From the NCBI GenBank assembly GCA_964387355.1, contig CAYLWJ010000107.1, positions 1,669-65,668 of the forward strand: 64,000 nt of DNA. The letters are read 5' to 3'. The position numbers were made by a program, and so were the translations under genes. The notes beneath the pieces were generated by a model. It made no database searches. It was not told the DNA's origin and saw only the letters and a program-made list of their open reading frames with translations. Source of the DNA: an uncultured Actinomycetota bacterium (GTDB lineage Bacteria; Actinomycetota; Humimicrobiia; Humimicrobiales; Humimicrobiaceae). The first letter of the stretch is position 1, and the number at the start of each line of letters is the position of its first letter. Of this stretch, positions 41,231-55,663 are shown piece after piece.

Positions 41231-41328
41231 AACTATCTCACTCCAATCTAAATAAAAAAATTTTATTAATAAATTTATTAAATTTAAAATTTATATGTAT
41301 TATAAAATTTAAATTTATAATACTTTTA

Positions 41329-41416
41329 TGGTGCGAGAGAGGGGATTTGAACCCCTACAGGTTGTTAGCCCACTAGATCCTAAGTCTAGCGCGTCTGCCA
41401 ATTCCGCCACTCTCGC
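41329..41416 (-). tRNA. tRNA-Leu (anticodon TAG), CCA encoded
   Basis: Reverse complement GCGAGAGTGGCGGAATTGGCAGACGCGCTAGACTTAGGATCTAGTGGGCTAACAACCTGTAGGGGTTCAAATCCCCTCTCTCGCACCA. Long variable arm. Anticodon loop CTTAGGA. Confidence 0.85.
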
Positions 41417-41445
41417 AAAAAACTAAGAAAACTATATAAAAACTA

Positions 41446-41521
41446 TGGTGGGTCGTACAGGCTTCGAACCTGTGACCCCCTGATTAAGAGTCAGGTGCTC
41501 TGCCAGCTGAGCTAACGACCC
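41446..41521 (-). tRNA. tRNA-Lys (anticodon CTT), CCA encoded
   Basis: Reverse complement GGGTCGTTAGCTCAGCTGGCAGAGCACCTGACTCTTAATCAGGGGGTCACAGGTTCGAAGCCTGTACGACCCACCA. Anticodon loop CTCTTAA. Confidence 0.85.
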
Positions 41522-41584
41522 ATTGCAACCTATAGCAACGCATATTGCTTAAAATATATAATAATTAATACCTAAAATAACCAA

Positions 41585-41661
41585 TGGCACGCCTGGAGGG
41601 ATTCGAACCCCCGACGCACGGATTCGAAGTCCGACGCTCTATCCAACTGAGCTACAGGCGC
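41585..41661 (-). tRNA. tRNA-Arg (anticodon TCG), CCA encoded
   Basis: Reverse complement GCGCCTGTAGCTCAGTTGGATAGAGCGTCGGACTTCGAATCCGTGCGTCGGGGGTTCGAATCCCTCCAGGCGTGCCA. Anticodon loop CTTCGAA. Confidence 0.8.
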
Positions 41662-41763
41662 TAATCATACAATAAAGTCACAAGCACTAAATAAATTAAC
41701 AAAATAAAATCATATAATTTATATAATTAAATCATATAATAAAACATATAATAAAAATAAAAA

Positions 41764-41842
41764 TGGGGTGAGAAACGGGATTCGAACCCGCGGCCTCAGG
41801 AGCCACAATCCTGCGCTCTAATCCAGCTGAGCTATTCCCACC
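41764..41842 (-). tRNA. tRNA-His (anticodon GTG) with encoded G-1 and CCA
   Basis: Reverse complement GGTGGGAATAGCTCAGCTGGATTAGAGCGCAGGATTGTGGCTCCTGAGGCCGCGGGTTCGAATCCCGTTTCTCACCCCA. The extra 5' G pairs with the discriminator C. Confidence 0.85.
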
Positions 41843-41895
41843 ACAAAATTTAAAATAATTTACTAATTTTTAAAATAATTTACTAATTTACTTAA

Positions 41896-41972
41896 TGGCG
41901 CGCTTGAAAGGATTCGAACCTTCGACCTACGGATTAGAAGTCCGTCGCTCTATCCAACTGAGCTACAAGCGC
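41896..41972 (-). tRNA. tRNA-Arg (anticodon TCT), CCA encoded
   Basis: Reverse complement GCGCTTGTAGCTCAGTTGGATAGAGCGACGGACTTCTAATCCGTAGGTCGAAGGTTCGAATCCTTTCAAGCGCGCCA. Anticodon loop CTTCTAA. Confidence 0.85.
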
Positions 41973-42245
41973 ATCAGACAAATAACTTTATAGAACAATT
42001 CTATAATCTTATATAATCAAAATAAACCTATCAAAACAAACCTATATTATTATATCAAAACAAAAAAATTTAACAAAATACCAGTATATAATTACTAATT
42101 CAAATAAGAATTGTCAATAATAATTTTTTTTGAAATTCAAAATAATAATCTAATATAACTAAAAATACAAGCCTAATTATTTAAAAGCGTTAGCATCTAA
42201 AATTTCTCATAACAATAAAAGTTAAGCTTAATTGATACGGCTTAT

Positions 42246-42392
42246 AGATATGGCTTTCTATTGAAAAAACGTTTTGAAGGCTTAAAGCGGGCATGGTTCC
42301 TCCTTTAGAAGGAAAGCGAAGCCTTAAAACTTGAACTATCTTTTTTTCGCTGGGAAAAAGCTAGCGTGTTTTTGAAATAGAAAGCCATATCT
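42246..42392. ncRNA. candidate structured non-coding RNA (long imperfect hairpin, ~28-bp closing stem plus internal helices; 6S-RNA-like architecture, family not identified)
   Basis: AGATATGGCTTTCTATTGAAAAAACG (42246-) pairs with CGTGTTTTTGAAATAGAAAGCCATATCT (-42392). Internal complementary AAGGCTT/AAGCCTT and CCTT/AAGG helices. A local GC-richer island inside a 700-nt non-coding gap between tRNA-Arg and the ADH gene. Confidence 0.25.
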
Positions 42393-42676
42393 TTTATTTT
42401 ACTTTTCATCACGAAATTTTAGGTGCTTCCTTTAAAAGCTAATTATTTAAAATGTTATTTTAAAATGCTAAAACTGCAGAAATAATCGCAGAACTAATTA
42501 TGAACTAATTATAGAAATAAAAGATTAGAAATAACTACCAATTTTTTAGTTTAACTTTATATTAACAATTTAAATTTTTTTGCACTTTATAAAAAATGTT
42601 TATATAGATGCCATATACCTATGAATATCGACAAAAGATATTAAAATTAGGTATCTTAAAAACAATATAAAGAACA

Positions 42677-43849
42677 TTATAAGCATAAACTCAAAATTTC
42701 CTTAACCTTATTAATATCGTAATCTTTAACATTCCAAACATCTGCAAGCTCAAGTATACTGCCTGCTAACTTATCAATTTCATTTGTTGGAATATTTGCA
42801 TCTTTAAATGATACAGGGCTTTTTATTTGGATAAACCAATTCTTTAAAGCTTCTATTCCTTTTAAAGCAGTATCTTCATCATCACTGCCTTTTATCTCAA
42901 AAACATTTTTAGCAAATTTTACATATTTAGAAATATTTTTCTTATAATTATATTTCATCCAACCTGGCACAATAATTGAAAGAGTTGCTCCATGAGCTAA
43001 ATCATAGTAAGCACCTAAAATGTGTCCAAACATGTGGTTAGGAACTGAAAAATCACCAATTCCAGCTGTTCCAAGACCATTCCATGCAAGTGAAGCTGCC
43101 CACATAAAAGTAGCCCTTGCCTGATAATTAGTTAAATCTTTTAAAATTGTATTTGTTGCTTCAATAATAGTTTTTACTAATCCTTCAACATATCTATCTT
43201 GTATAGGACAGTTAGGGTCATTTGAAGTAAAATAACCCTCTAAAAGATGTATAACAGCATCAACTGCAGCATAAGCAGTATAGTCAGCAGGTATAGTCAA
43301 AGTAACCGATGGGTCAAGTATAGATACTTTTGGATATAGATTCTGATTAATAAACCCAAATTTTTGTTTTTTCTCTTCATTTGTCAACACTGTTCCGCCA
43401 TTATATTCAGAAGCTGTTGCAGGAACAGTTAACACTGTTAAAACAGGCAAGGCTTTTTTTATCTCAGATTTGCCATTATAAAAATCCCAGACATCTCCAT
43501 CGTATAGGGCACCTGCTGCAATTGCTTTTCCTTCATCAATTACACTACCACCTCCAACAGCTAAAATAAAATCAACTTTTTGGCTTTTTGCAATTTCGAT
43601 ACCTTTTCTAGCATGCGAAACCACTGGATTCGGTTTAACTCCGCTATGCTCAATTATTTCAAGGTTATTATCTTTAAGGGATTTTATTACTGTCTGGTAA
43701 ACTCCATTTTTCTTAATAGAACCCATACCATAAACTAATAAAAGTTTTTTGCCATAATCCTTTGCAAAGCTTCCAATTAAAGAAATTTTACCTTTGCCAA
43801 ATACTATTTTAGTAGGAAGACATAATTCAAAATCTTGCATTTTTATCAC
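42677..43849 (-). CDS. iron-containing (group III) alcohol dehydrogenase
   Basis: Fe-ADH signature GGGSVIDEGKAIA, plus His-rich metal-ligand motifs in the C-terminal half. 390 aa. Confidence 0.85.
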   Translation of the reverse strand: MIKMQDFELCLPTKIVFGKGKISLIGSFAKDYGKKLLLVYGMGSIKKNGVYQTVIKSLKDNNLEIIEHSGVKPNPVVSHARKGIEIAKSQKVDFILAVGGGSVIDEGKAIAAGALYDGDVWDFYNGKSEIKKALPVLTVLTVPATASEYNGGTVLTNEEKKQKFGFINQNLYPKVSILDPSVTLTIPADYTAYAAVDAVIHLLEGYFTSNDPNCPIQDRYVEGLVKTIIEATNTILKDLTNYQARATFMWAASLAWNGLGTAGIGDFSVPNHMFGHILGAYYDLAHGATLSIIVPGWMKYNYKKNISKYVKFAKNVFEIKGSDDEDTALKGIEALKNWFIQIKSPVSFKDANIPTNEIDKLAGSILELADVWNVKDYDINKVKEILSLCL

Positions 43850-44370: not shown

Positions 44371-44580
44371 ATGAGAACAACAATAAATATCAATAATGAA
44401 GTAATAAAAGAAGCCCAAGCTTTATACAACACAAATAATCGTTCTAAGGCTATAGAAAATGCCATAAAAGATGCAGTAAGATTTAATAAATTGAAAGAGT
44501 TAATGTCTTTAAAACTAAAAATAAATTTTGATGAAGAATATATAAAAAAAATAAGAAACAGTGAAATAAATGAAGCATAA
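44371..44580 (+). CDS. vapB: type II antitoxin, VapB-like
   Basis: 69-aa protein (MRTTININNEVIKEAQALYNTNNRSKAIENAIKDAV...) overlapping the downstream PIN gene by 11 nt. Confidence 0.65.
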   Translation: MRTTININNEVIKEAQALYNTNNRSKAIENAIKDAVRFNKLKELMSLKLKINFDEEYIKKIRNSEINEA

Positions 44581-44956
44581 AATTATTGTCGATACTTCTG
44601 CATGGATTGAATATTTTAAAAACAACACAACTTTTGTAAAATTTATTGAAGAGAATTTATATATTGATTCAATTTTTATCACAGGTCCAATAATTTCTGA
44701 GCTTCTTCAAGGCACAAAAACTGAAAAAGAGTTAGACCTACTTCTATATTCAATTAAAGCAGTTCCATTTATAGAGTGCAGTTACGATGATTGGGTATCT
44801 GCTGGTCAATTGTCTTTCAATTTAAGAAAAAATGGTAAAATTATCCCGTTAACAGATTTGCTTATTGCTGTAATTGCGCTAAAAAACGATGCTAAAGTAT
44901 TAACACTTGACAATCACTTTAAAGAAATACCTAAAGTCAAATTAATAGAATTGTAG
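44570..44956 (+). CDS. vapC: PIN-domain toxin VapC
   Basis: MKHKIIVDTSAWIEYF... supplies the first acidic residue. The central ELLQG region and LLIAVIALKNDAKVLTLDNHF at the C-terminus give the PIN acidic quartet pattern. Confidence 0.75.
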   Translation: MKHKIIVDTSAWIEYFKNNTTFVKFIEENLYIDSIFITGPIISELLQGTKTEKELDLLLYSIKAVPFIECSYDDWVSAGQLSFNLRKNGKIIPLTDLLIAVIALKNDAKVLTLDNHFKEIPKVKLIEL

Positions 44957-53893: not shown

Positions 53894-55663
53894 CTATCCT
53901 CTATAATCACTACCAAGAATAATTGTTATATCCACATTATCAATGTTATTACTTGATTGTGAAATCTGACCGACACCTAAATATTTCTTTAAATCTTCTG
54001 CTATTAAGTTTATATCCTGTTTAGAGGTAAATATAATTATTTTAGTAGTTTTATAATTAAAATTATCTGCATTCTTAGTTTCTTTAACAATAATCTGAAC
54101 TTTATCTTTGTTAAAGAATGACTCAATTTTACCTTTAAGTCTTGCAGCAATACCTTGTGTTCCCTGACCATTTAATATGTTTATAGTATATTGGCTTAAC
54201 TGTGTTGAGGACTTAACCAGCTGACTTTGGCTAAAGTCACTTCCAATTATTATAACTATATCTGACACCTGCAAATAGCCTTTGCGGGTGGAAATAACTC
54301 CTGTCTTTAATATACTTTTTATCTCGTCTGCAGCTTTTAAAATTTCCTGATTATTGTTTTTGCATATAATTTGGGTATTTTTGTAGCTAAAACTTTTTGC
54401 ATCAGCAACTTCTACCACTTTATATTTAAAATTTCCATTTAAATCTTTTATTGATGAAACTAATTGTGAAGTTTGAGCAGCTATTCCTTTTATACCAACA
54501 CCGTTTAAAACAGTTATAGTAAATGCAGAACTGGAAATATTTGTATCTTCGCTTTTTGTATTTATATTATTTACACTACTGTTTGCAGTAGTTGCACTAT
54601 AAGTATAGCCGTTTTTTATGTAATTATTTATAAGGCTGTTAAACTCAGGTGATGAAAGAAAATAAGAAAGAACAGCTGATCTTTTCTGATATTTAAGCTG
54701 AGAAATCCAGTAAGCCTCTCCGTTTGGGTCAGGATTTCTATCAAGAACAGTATTATATAGAATATTAATATACTGGGCGTCTGTCAAATTTCTACTATTA
54801 AATTGGTTGCTTAAAATAATGCCTTTTATAACATCTGCATAACTAATTTCACCTGAACTTAACCTACCTGCCCAATTATTTATTGTAGCTGCATCAGGGT
54901 CTATATTTAAACCTTTTTGGTATACTTTTTTGACAAATGCTTGAGCTGATGCAAGCTTTCTTGCCTCTAATATTTCTTTTTCACTTATTTTAAGGTAATC
55001 AAGAATACCATTATAAATTCCAGTTGCAATTTTATCTCTGAAGCCTGCATCATTTAGTTTAGCTTCTTCATCTGGATTTGAAATAAAAGCTGCCTCAACT
55101 AAAGCTGAGACCATTTTTACATTTTTTATTTCTGAAAAATCTGAAGCCTTTACTCCCCTGTTTGCTGTTTTTATCTGTTCTATTACTCTGCTGTTTAAAT
55201 AACTTGCAAGAACTCTGCTGTTAGGTGACTGACTGTAGTAAAAAGTTTCTGTTCCATTTTTTTCTCGGGAAGTATGGCTGTTATTGTGAATACTTATAAA
55301 AATGTTTGCATTGCTTGAATTTACAAAATTAGCAATTTCTTCAAGGGATTTTTTTGTATCATCTTCACGTGTAAGTAGAACTTTAAAGCCAGAGTTTGCA
55401 AGTTTGTCTTTTAGCCTAAAAGCAATATCAAGATTTACATCCTTTTCTTTTAACCCGGATGGGCCTGTTGCACCATGATCATTTCCTCCATGACCTGGAT
55501 TAATGCATATTATAATTTGTGAGTTAGTATCTGCATAGATTGTTTTAACTAAAGTAAGATAAAAAGATGCAAATACAATTACAACTGTTATAAGAATTAA
55601 GAGTGATATTAAAGCTGACTTAAAAACATTTGGACAAGCATTTATTTTTCTTTTTATAAACAT
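53894..55663 (-). CDS. N-acetylmuramoyl-L-alanine amidase (Amidase_3) - DUF4214 - 2x LytR_C domain protein
   Basis: IICINPGHGGNDHGATGPSGLKEKDVNLDIA...FISIHNN is the Amidase_3 motif. DUF4214-like NWAGRLSSGEISYADVIKGIILSNQF. The two C-terminal repeats are near-identical in motif to the LCP protein's C-terminus (GVGQISQSSNNIDNVDITIILGSDY). Confidence 0.8.
   Translation of the reverse strand: MFIKRKINACPNVFKSALISLLILITVVIVFASFYLTLVKTIYADTNSQIIICINPGHGGNDHGATGPSGLKEKDVNLDIAFRLKDKLANSGFKVLLTREDDTKKSLEEIANFVNSSNANIFISIHNNSHTSREKNGTETFYYSQSPNSRVLASYLNSRVIEQIKTANRGVKASDFSEIKNVKMVSALVEAAFISNPDEEAKLNDAGFRDKIATGIYNGILDYLKISEKEILEARKLASAQAFVKKVYQKGLNIDPDAATINNWAGRLSSGEISYADVIKGIILSNQFNSRNLTDAQYINILYNTVLDRNPDPNGEAYWISQLKYQKRSAVLSYFLSSPEFNSLINNYIKNGYTYSATTANSSVNNINTKSEDTNISSSAFTITVLNGVGIKGIAAQTSQLVSSIKDLNGNFKYKVVEVADAKSFSYKNTQIICKNNNQEILKAADEIKSILKTGVISTRKGYLQVSDIVIIIGSDFSQSQLVKSSTQLSQYTINILNGQGTQGIAARLKGKIESFFNKDKVQIIVKETKNADNFNYKTTKIIIFTSKQDINLIAEDLKKYLGVGQISQSSNNIDNVDITIILGSDYRG

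Follow-up and report, generated by a model that had tools for sequence, protein, structure and literature searches.

A 242-bp unit with nested inverted repeats is very probably one copy of a previously undescribed MITE family in an AT-rich actinobacterial lineage

We asked what kind of element is formed by the strongly folding stretch at 42246-42392 of the window, the whole 64-kb piece of DNA that was analysed. The initial annotation had read this stretch as a structured RNA with a 6S-like architecture, and had offered a minus-strand small protein or leader peptide and an att-site or MITE remnant as alternatives. The order of features on the minus strand is tRNA-Pro, tRNA-Gly, a Fe-ADH gene (42677-43840), the element, tRNA-Arg/His/Arg/Lys/Leu, tig, clpP and clpX. 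The window has a GC content of 28.5% and its genes are bacterial, including those for trigger factor (tig), clpP, clpX, a bacterial-type valS, LeuS and MreBCD/PBP2/RodA. An archaeal source, which an AT-rich genome with GC-rich RNA islands had brought to mind, was rejected in view of tig, clpP, clpX and this valS; the host is probably a low-GC Actinomycetota. Among named organisms, the flanking proteins have their closest relatives in MAGs of Actinomycetota / Candidatus Humimicrobiaceae, at only 60-68% identity, and 'Actinobacteria bacterium ADurb.Bin346' is among the closest named relatives of the window proteins. The same region also holds a pair of genes for a VapB-like antitoxin (69 aa) and a VapC PIN toxin (128 aa) at 44371-44956 on the plus strand; it sits between tRNA-Pro and the RdgB/Ham1 gene on the strand opposite to all its neighbours.

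The long end-to-end stem that had been described at 42246-42392 was recovered at that position. Its arms, 42246-42270 and 42368-42392, are 25 nt each, are 92% complementary and enclose a gap of 97 nt, and the pair ranked first among the inverted repeats of the 64-kb window. The perfect part of this repeat, the 17-mer AGATATGGCTTTCTATT, occurs at only two sites in the window, one in each arm. A 161-nt stretch covering the stem folded at -52.5 kcal/mol on the plus strand (z -4.5) and at -48.9 kcal/mol on the minus strand (z -6.2), and none of the 200 shuffled controls folded as well. The predicted fold of the module is a three-way junction. The internal pairings that had been pointed out are present, and the pairings AAGGCTT/AAGCCTT and CCUUC...GGAGG are part of the fold. 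The description of the stretch as a GC-richer island was also borne out, if modestly, with a GC fraction of 0.32-0.38 compared to 0.13-0.25 in the flanking spacer.

The earlier reading covered this one stem only and missed a pair of outer inverted repeats and a flanking 9-bp direct repeat. When the copies described below were aligned together with their flanks, their similarity ran from GTTAGCATC to GATGCTTCC, giving a unit of 242 bp at 42189-42430. Outer terminal inverted repeats of ~23 nt, with the consensus G(T/G)(T/A)AGCATCTAAAATTTCGTGAT, lie at these limits, and when the whole unit is folded, 42189-42210 and 42408-42430 pair with each other. The left outer repeat of the window copy departs from the family consensus by a 1-nt deletion and one substitution. 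Since both the limits of similarity and the outer repeats fall at 42189 and 42430, the stem noticed earlier is a second, inner inverted repeat; the 147-nt stretch is an internal module of the 242-bp unit, nested within the outer pair. The features of the unit are given below, where L numbers denote loci in other sequences.

42180-42188: left target-site duplication TTTAAAAGC, identical (9/9) to 42431-42439
42189-42210: outer terminal inverted repeat, left, GTTAGCATCTAAAATTTC-TCAT; the similarity between copies starts exactly here
42190-42294, minus strand: 34-codon open reading frame behind AGGAGGAACC, judged not to be a gene
42211-42245: left arm, 35 nt, holding AAAGTTAAGCTTAAT, which is kept in all copies in the alignments
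42246-42270: left arm of the inner inverted repeat (5' end of the stem noticed earlier)
42271-42367: core between the inner repeats, 97 nt, with two sub-hairpins; inverted relative to the arms in L005/L008
42273-42329: core hairpin 2, with the outer stem AAGGCUU/AAGCCUU in the consensus fold
42298-42313: inner stem-loop of core hairpin 2, UCCUUC-UAAA-GGAGGA
42335-42376, plus strand only: core hairpin 1 followed by TGTTTTTGAA, terminator-like in the terminator scan
42368-42392: right arm of the inner inverted repeat (3' end of the stem noticed earlier)
42393-42407, plus strand: right arm TTTATTTTACTTTTC, 15 nt, a T-run directly after the long hairpin, as read from the sequence
42408-42430: outer terminal inverted repeat, right (reverse complement GGAAGCACCTAAAATTTCGTGAT)
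42431-42439: right target-site duplication TTTAAAAGC

The coding capacity of the unit is limited to open reading frames of 34-35 codons, none of which is conserved. Elsewhere in the window, 54332-54351 (plus strand) matches the outer repeat at 17 of 20 positions; this site is inside an amidase/LytR_C gene, has no partner and was judged a chance match.

Metagenome contigs were scanned for the inner-repeat pattern, and five homologous loci and one unrelated palindrome were found. The latter, L007 908-1043 (Ga0115007_10265732), was rejected as a copy, as it is a near-perfect palindrome of 136 nt that has only the 12-nt pattern ends in common with the unit by chance. Five distinct contexts were documented including that of the window, four of them in a single metagenome. 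By BLAST, the match to the window is confined to about 260-300 bp at and around the element in L006, L009 and L010 and to about 150 bp in L005/L008. The neighbours differ at every site: lepA and a malic enzyme gene at L006, genes for a DHH/CBS/CCA-adding protein and argJ at L009, aroC and aroK at L010, and a DUF4349 protein gene convergent with an ABC-2 transporter at L005/L008. Looking for further copies had been suggested as a way to recognize a repeat element, and the presence of near-identical units in four other intergenic contexts favours that reading. There are no tRNA genes near the copies at L005/L008, L006, L009 or L010, so the tRNA setting in the window, which had been regarded as an integration hotspot, is incidental. 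Across the inner 147 nt, the copy in the window does not differ from that in L006, and both have the same three substitutions weakening core hairpin 1, as would be expected if one variant was copied recently. A search of the window and all loci with an nhmmer profile of the unit gave no further copies, and the inner-repeat pattern had no exact match in the GTDB species representatives. Two scans of viral contigs with the outer and inner repeat sequences returned 0 matches, and the whole unit had no blastn match in plasmid and phage collections.

The behaviour of metagenome assemblies at the element also reflects the repeat. Four contigs, L001-L004, encode exactly the Fe-ADH of the window and are 98-99.9% identical to it, and each stops either inside the element or shortly after it. 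Independent assemblies break at the element in L001, L003, L004 and L037 (Logan SRR7048518, SRR10519663; JGI 3300022548); L037, an aroK contig from another sample, starts 18 nt inside the outer repeat of the element. A trigger-factor contig, L036, stops in the tRNA cluster. In L002 (3179-3328) and L003 (2508-2710), the flanks are those of the window while the element differs at about 8-14 positions, and the version in L002 equals the L009 copy. Most simply, these foreign versions arose when the assembler crossed the repeat via another copy; gene conversion between copies is the alternative.

The unit is flanked by a 9-bp direct repeat that is identical at all nine positions in the window (TTTAAAAGC), in L009 (ATTAATTAC) and in L010 (TTTAAATTC), while the flanking 9-mers agree at 8/9 positions in L005/L008 and at 6/9 in L006. 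As background, 9/9 identity at the same spacing occurs at 1 of 63,731 positions of the window. The flanks appeared permuted at first look, in the order X-Y-element-Y-X, and a second duplication mechanism was considered and rejected as an explanation; the pattern arises because the insertions sit within short AT-rich tandem arrays, which are common in the spacers. At each site, the 9-mer bears a variant specific to that unit and is duplicated exactly, and it is therefore a true target-site duplication. As for the arrays themselves, short tandem duplications of 8-22 nt crowd 41266-42045, in the spacers of the tRNA cluster, and 42476-42512, downstream of Fe-ADH, and there is a perfect 20-nt x2 repeat at 41849-41889; the copies of the window and of L010 sit inside such arrays.

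A trigger-factor search of the GTDB genomes provided one useful syntenic relative, L028 (CAWKAO010000007.1). This nearest GTDB representative is syntenic with the window at about 70% nucleotide identity and has a GC content of 36.5%. Its spacer from the Fe-ADH gene to tRNA-Arg measures about 140 nt, lacks the element and, at ~70% nucleotide identity, is unalignable. Among close strains no empty site was found, as homologues of Fe-ADH and of the L010 aroK drop from 99-100% to 60-68% identity, and the sole close contig in this comparison, L037, begins inside the element.

The presence of multiple copies at unrelated sites, the terminal inverted repeats at the limits of the unit, the flanking duplications with a fixed length of 9 bp, and the small non-coding size without a transposase gene together identify a MITE. 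We conclude that 42189-42430 is very probably one copy of a non-autonomous DNA transposon of this type, from a previously undescribed family with the end sequence GGAAGCATCTAAAATTTCGTGAT. The suggestion of a MITE remnant was thus right as to the MITE and wrong as to the remnant, since what is present is an intact unit of 242 bp instead of 147 bp. We also considered a nested MITE, in which the inner element would have inserted independently into the outer one, and rejected it; the inner boundaries carry no duplication, and an inner element without arms was not seen. We propose that a transposase encoded elsewhere in the genome would bind the ~23-nt terminal repeats and cut AT-rich intergenic DNA with a 9-bp stagger, giving rise to the 9-bp duplication. 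A duplication of this length fits several DDE families, such as IS1, the IS10/IS50 group of IS4, the IS903 group of IS5, IS256 and ISLre2. No parent IS or transposase with matching ends was present in the scanned window ORFs of at least 120 aa, at the studied loci or in the plasmid and phage collections.

Correia elements duplicate TA on insertion. The Correia repeat-enclosed elements (CREE) of Neisseria fold into hairpins, influence their neighbours and have been reported to invert (PMC10969869; PMC2649163). Like them, the element described here is a dispersed repeat of about 100-200 bp with inverted repeats around a conserved core, and it would form a long hairpin when transcribed. Unlike it, CREE have one pair of 26-nt repeats, documented promoters, and IHF and RNase III sites, and here the inner core alone is inverted and not the whole element. 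MITEAba12 of Acinetobacter, one of the bacterial MITEs that derive from DDE insertion sequences, is an AT-rich element of 113 bp with 16-bp terminal repeats and 9-bp duplications, and its parent is ISAba12 (PMC6382973). Both it and the window unit are short, AT-rich and without an ORF, with terminal inverted repeats, 9-bp duplications, AT-rich intergenic sites and several near-identical copies. However, the window unit is longer (242 bp vs 113 bp), has longer terminal repeats (23 nt vs 16 nt) and contains a second, internal inverted repeat of 25 nt, and the two share no sequence similarity. SPRITE of Streptococcus pneumoniae has the form of a Rho-independent terminator (PMC3049150; PMC10969869). 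SPRITE, RUP and BOX are likewise small interspersed repeats, and the terminator form of SPRITE parallels the strand-specific signals described below, but they have other sequences and belong to another phylum, and SPRITE is much shorter and lacks nested repeats. By analogy, the Correia elements are the closest in behaviour, and MITEAba12 is a close formal analogue.

The copies at L005 and L008, which come from two independent assemblies, differ from the others in the orientation of the core. Their arms align with the window in the plus orientation and have AAAGTTAAGCTTAAT (left) and CTTTTATTTTACTTT (right) in common with it, including the first 13 nt of the right arm, whereas their core matches the opposite strand at 86-89%. 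These observations indicate that the core was inverted at least once in the history of the family. A tandem G-A/T-C mismatch within the inner stem is also flipped in L005/L008, which locates the exchange in the 17 nt over which the repeat is perfect. The inversion most likely took place via recombination or replication template-switching between the perfect 17-nt parts of the inner repeats. For hairpin loops at quasi-palindromes, template switching can produce an inversion with no enzyme involved.

Conservation within the unit is uneven. In the alignment of the inner element, columns 4-33 and 91-147 are invariant in all copies, barring one indel and one C/G site. The left inner arm, 42246-42270, is invariant across seven copies except for positions 2-3, and the 3' side of core hairpin 2 (columns 91-122 of alignment A1) is nearly so. 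The invariant inner ends amount to 88 nt. Variation is found in the central part of the core, and compared with the window, L005 retains only 60% identity in its left arm and 74% in its right arm. Invariant inner ends beside diverged arms are not predicted by passive decay of a selfish repeat, which counts against a plain MITE, and need either selection on these ends or gene conversion among copies.

We examined the copies for signals that could affect transcription of their neighbours. On the plus strand of the window and its equivalent in the other copies, a small G+C-based hairpin is followed by TGTTTTTGAA (UGUUUUU), and the long hairpin is followed by the T-run TTTTATTTTACTTTTC (UUUUAUUUUACUUUU in RNA). 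In a consensus scan for terminators, a G+C-based hairpin with a U-run was present on one strand in every copy. The terminator-like signal of core hairpin 1, a hairpin weakened in the window copy by substitutions that break pairs, is also found in L006, L009 and L010, and on the other strand in L005. In all four contexts where the element lies between co-directional genes (window, L006, L009 and L010), the terminator-like strand is opposite to both flanking genes; with a one-sided p of 0.06, this orientation bias of predicted terminator signals is suggestive only. At L005, an ABC operon ends at the element, and with the core flipped the small terminator comes to lie on the strand of this operon; the long hairpin with its T-run faces the converging DUF4349 gene, and thus the signals face both genes. 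We propose that the module may act as an intrinsic terminator when transcribed on the strand equivalent to the plus strand of the window, the other strand having no such signal. Because the module would terminate on one strand, copies between co-directional genes may persist only in the harmless, non-terminating orientation. Separately, a weak promoter-like sequence, TTGAAA-17-TATTTT (9-10 of 12), occurs at 42372-42400 on the plus strand and in the same place in L006, L009 and L010. Spanning the inner repeat and the right arm, it points out of the element and runs antisense to the genes on either side; L005 has lost its first hexamer, which falls within the invertible part.

The flipped core raises the possibility that the MITE bears an inverton, in which a site-specific recombinase acting in trans flips the 97-nt core at the inner repeats and so phase-varies read-through. 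Invertons are invertible promoter or terminator switches, such as fimS of E. coli and cwpV of C. difficile, and in cwpV the orientation decides whether a terminator forms. In this explanation, each flip would redirect a unidirectional terminator and possibly a -35 element; it is compatible with a MITE origin and adds an active function to it. The family does resemble known invertons in that a segment of about 100-300 bp has short inverted repeats at its two ends and exists in both orientations; at 147 bp, with repeats of 17-25 bp, the module here is of typical inverton size. Flipping shifts the small terminator-like hairpin to the other strand, and the inner repeats and adjacent bases are invariant despite the 60-74% identity of the arms. 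Inversion of Correia MITEs has been reported as well (PMC10969869). However, the two orientations were seen between paralogous copies only and there is no locus with both, since the orientation is the same in the window, L002 and L003 at the Fe-ADH locus and in L005 and L008 at theirs. Of all copies, the flipped one has also diverged the most, and one ancient event therefore suffices. Moreover, no recombinase gene was found in the scanned window ORFs (at least 120 aa) or beside the other copies, template switching can invert a hairpin loop without any such enzyme, and, unlike known invertons, the segment here lies within a multi-copy transposable unit. Taken together, we regard an actively flipping core as unlikely, both as a recombinase-driven event and as a switch of read-through. 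We consider it slightly less probable again that the family is a mobile inverton, that is, a MITE spreading an invertible terminator (perhaps promoter) cassette whose inner repeats serve as sites for one trans-acting recombinase. If this were true, such an element could phase-vary many operon junctions together, for example aroC|aroK and Fe-ADH|tRNA cluster.

The reading from which the analysis started was that of a stand-alone regulatory RNA gene, 6S-like or another sRNA, with its own promoter and with 42246-42392 as the mature RNA. The strong, non-random fold, the T-run after the stem on the plus strand, and the sub-hairpins kept in the diverged L005 copy are all consistent with it. One compensatory pair, a change from C-G to U-A in L005/L008 in the small stem-loop of core hairpin 2, points in the same direction. 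Covariation in the consensus fold is minimal, however, since this lone pair is set against several pairs broken by substitutions in single copies, the window copy included. At gathering thresholds, the only Rfam matches in the whole window were seven tRNAs; over 42050-42700, there were only chance-level matches at E<=10 and no family was recovered from a library that includes 6S, SRP, RNase P, tmRNA and T-box. In particular, the 6S model (RF00013) had no match at E<=10, and apart from a long imperfect hairpin the element is unlike 6S RNA in size and topology, being 147 nt with a three-way junction and no central bubble. Promoter-like sites over the region were not above chance, with 7 found and 4.7 +/- 2.6 expected. 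In addition, the element is multi-copy with target-site duplications, and it is absent from the syntenic relative L028. We therefore abandoned the structured-RNA interpretation, which has become very improbable, in favour of the MITE.

It is similarly improbable that the element is a REPIN or an IS200/IS605-type palindrome, moved as single-stranded DNA by a Y1 (RAYT/TnpA) transposase, with the inner hairpin as the mobile unit and the outer arms as incidental sequence. REPINs have highly conserved inverted ends and a variable spacer, and the inner element resembles them in this respect. But the outer arms are present at 6/6 homologous loci found via the inner repeat, the 9-bp duplications flank the outer unit, with none at the ends of the inner element, and a Y1 transposase was not found. 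To our knowledge, Y1 elements make no target duplications.

The minus-strand open reading frame behind AGGAGGAACCATG does exist, with 34 codons (MPALSLQNVF...), but its reading as a small protein or leader peptide translated from AGGAGGAACCAUG is almost certainly wrong: despite a strong Shine-Dalgarno-like sequence 5 nt before the ATG, the frame is not conserved, as the T of the ATG is deleted (1 nt) in L003 and L009 and the flipped core in L005/L008 makes the frame extend into a different arm, the GGAGG forms one strand of a hairpin stem that is conserved, an exact look-up of the peptide among 153 billion gene positions gave no record, and a homologue search with the 56-aa stop-to-stop frame gave none.

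With the unit identified as a MITE, a false candidate ncRNA can be struck off, and the breaks at the element in metagenome assemblies of the host are explained. It also provides a defined family, with its ends, 9-bp duplication and consensus, that is usable for repeat masking and for a search for the parent transposase. The element is an ordinary kind of selfish repeat, and the flipped core in one family member is its unusual trait; if flipping were seen in read-level data, it would link MITEs with phase-variable switches. The family belongs to a poorly known, unusually AT-rich actinobacterial lineage, and its nested repeats, flipped core and orientation-matched terminator signals make it a small natural test case for selfish repeats that are tolerated or co-opted as terminators.
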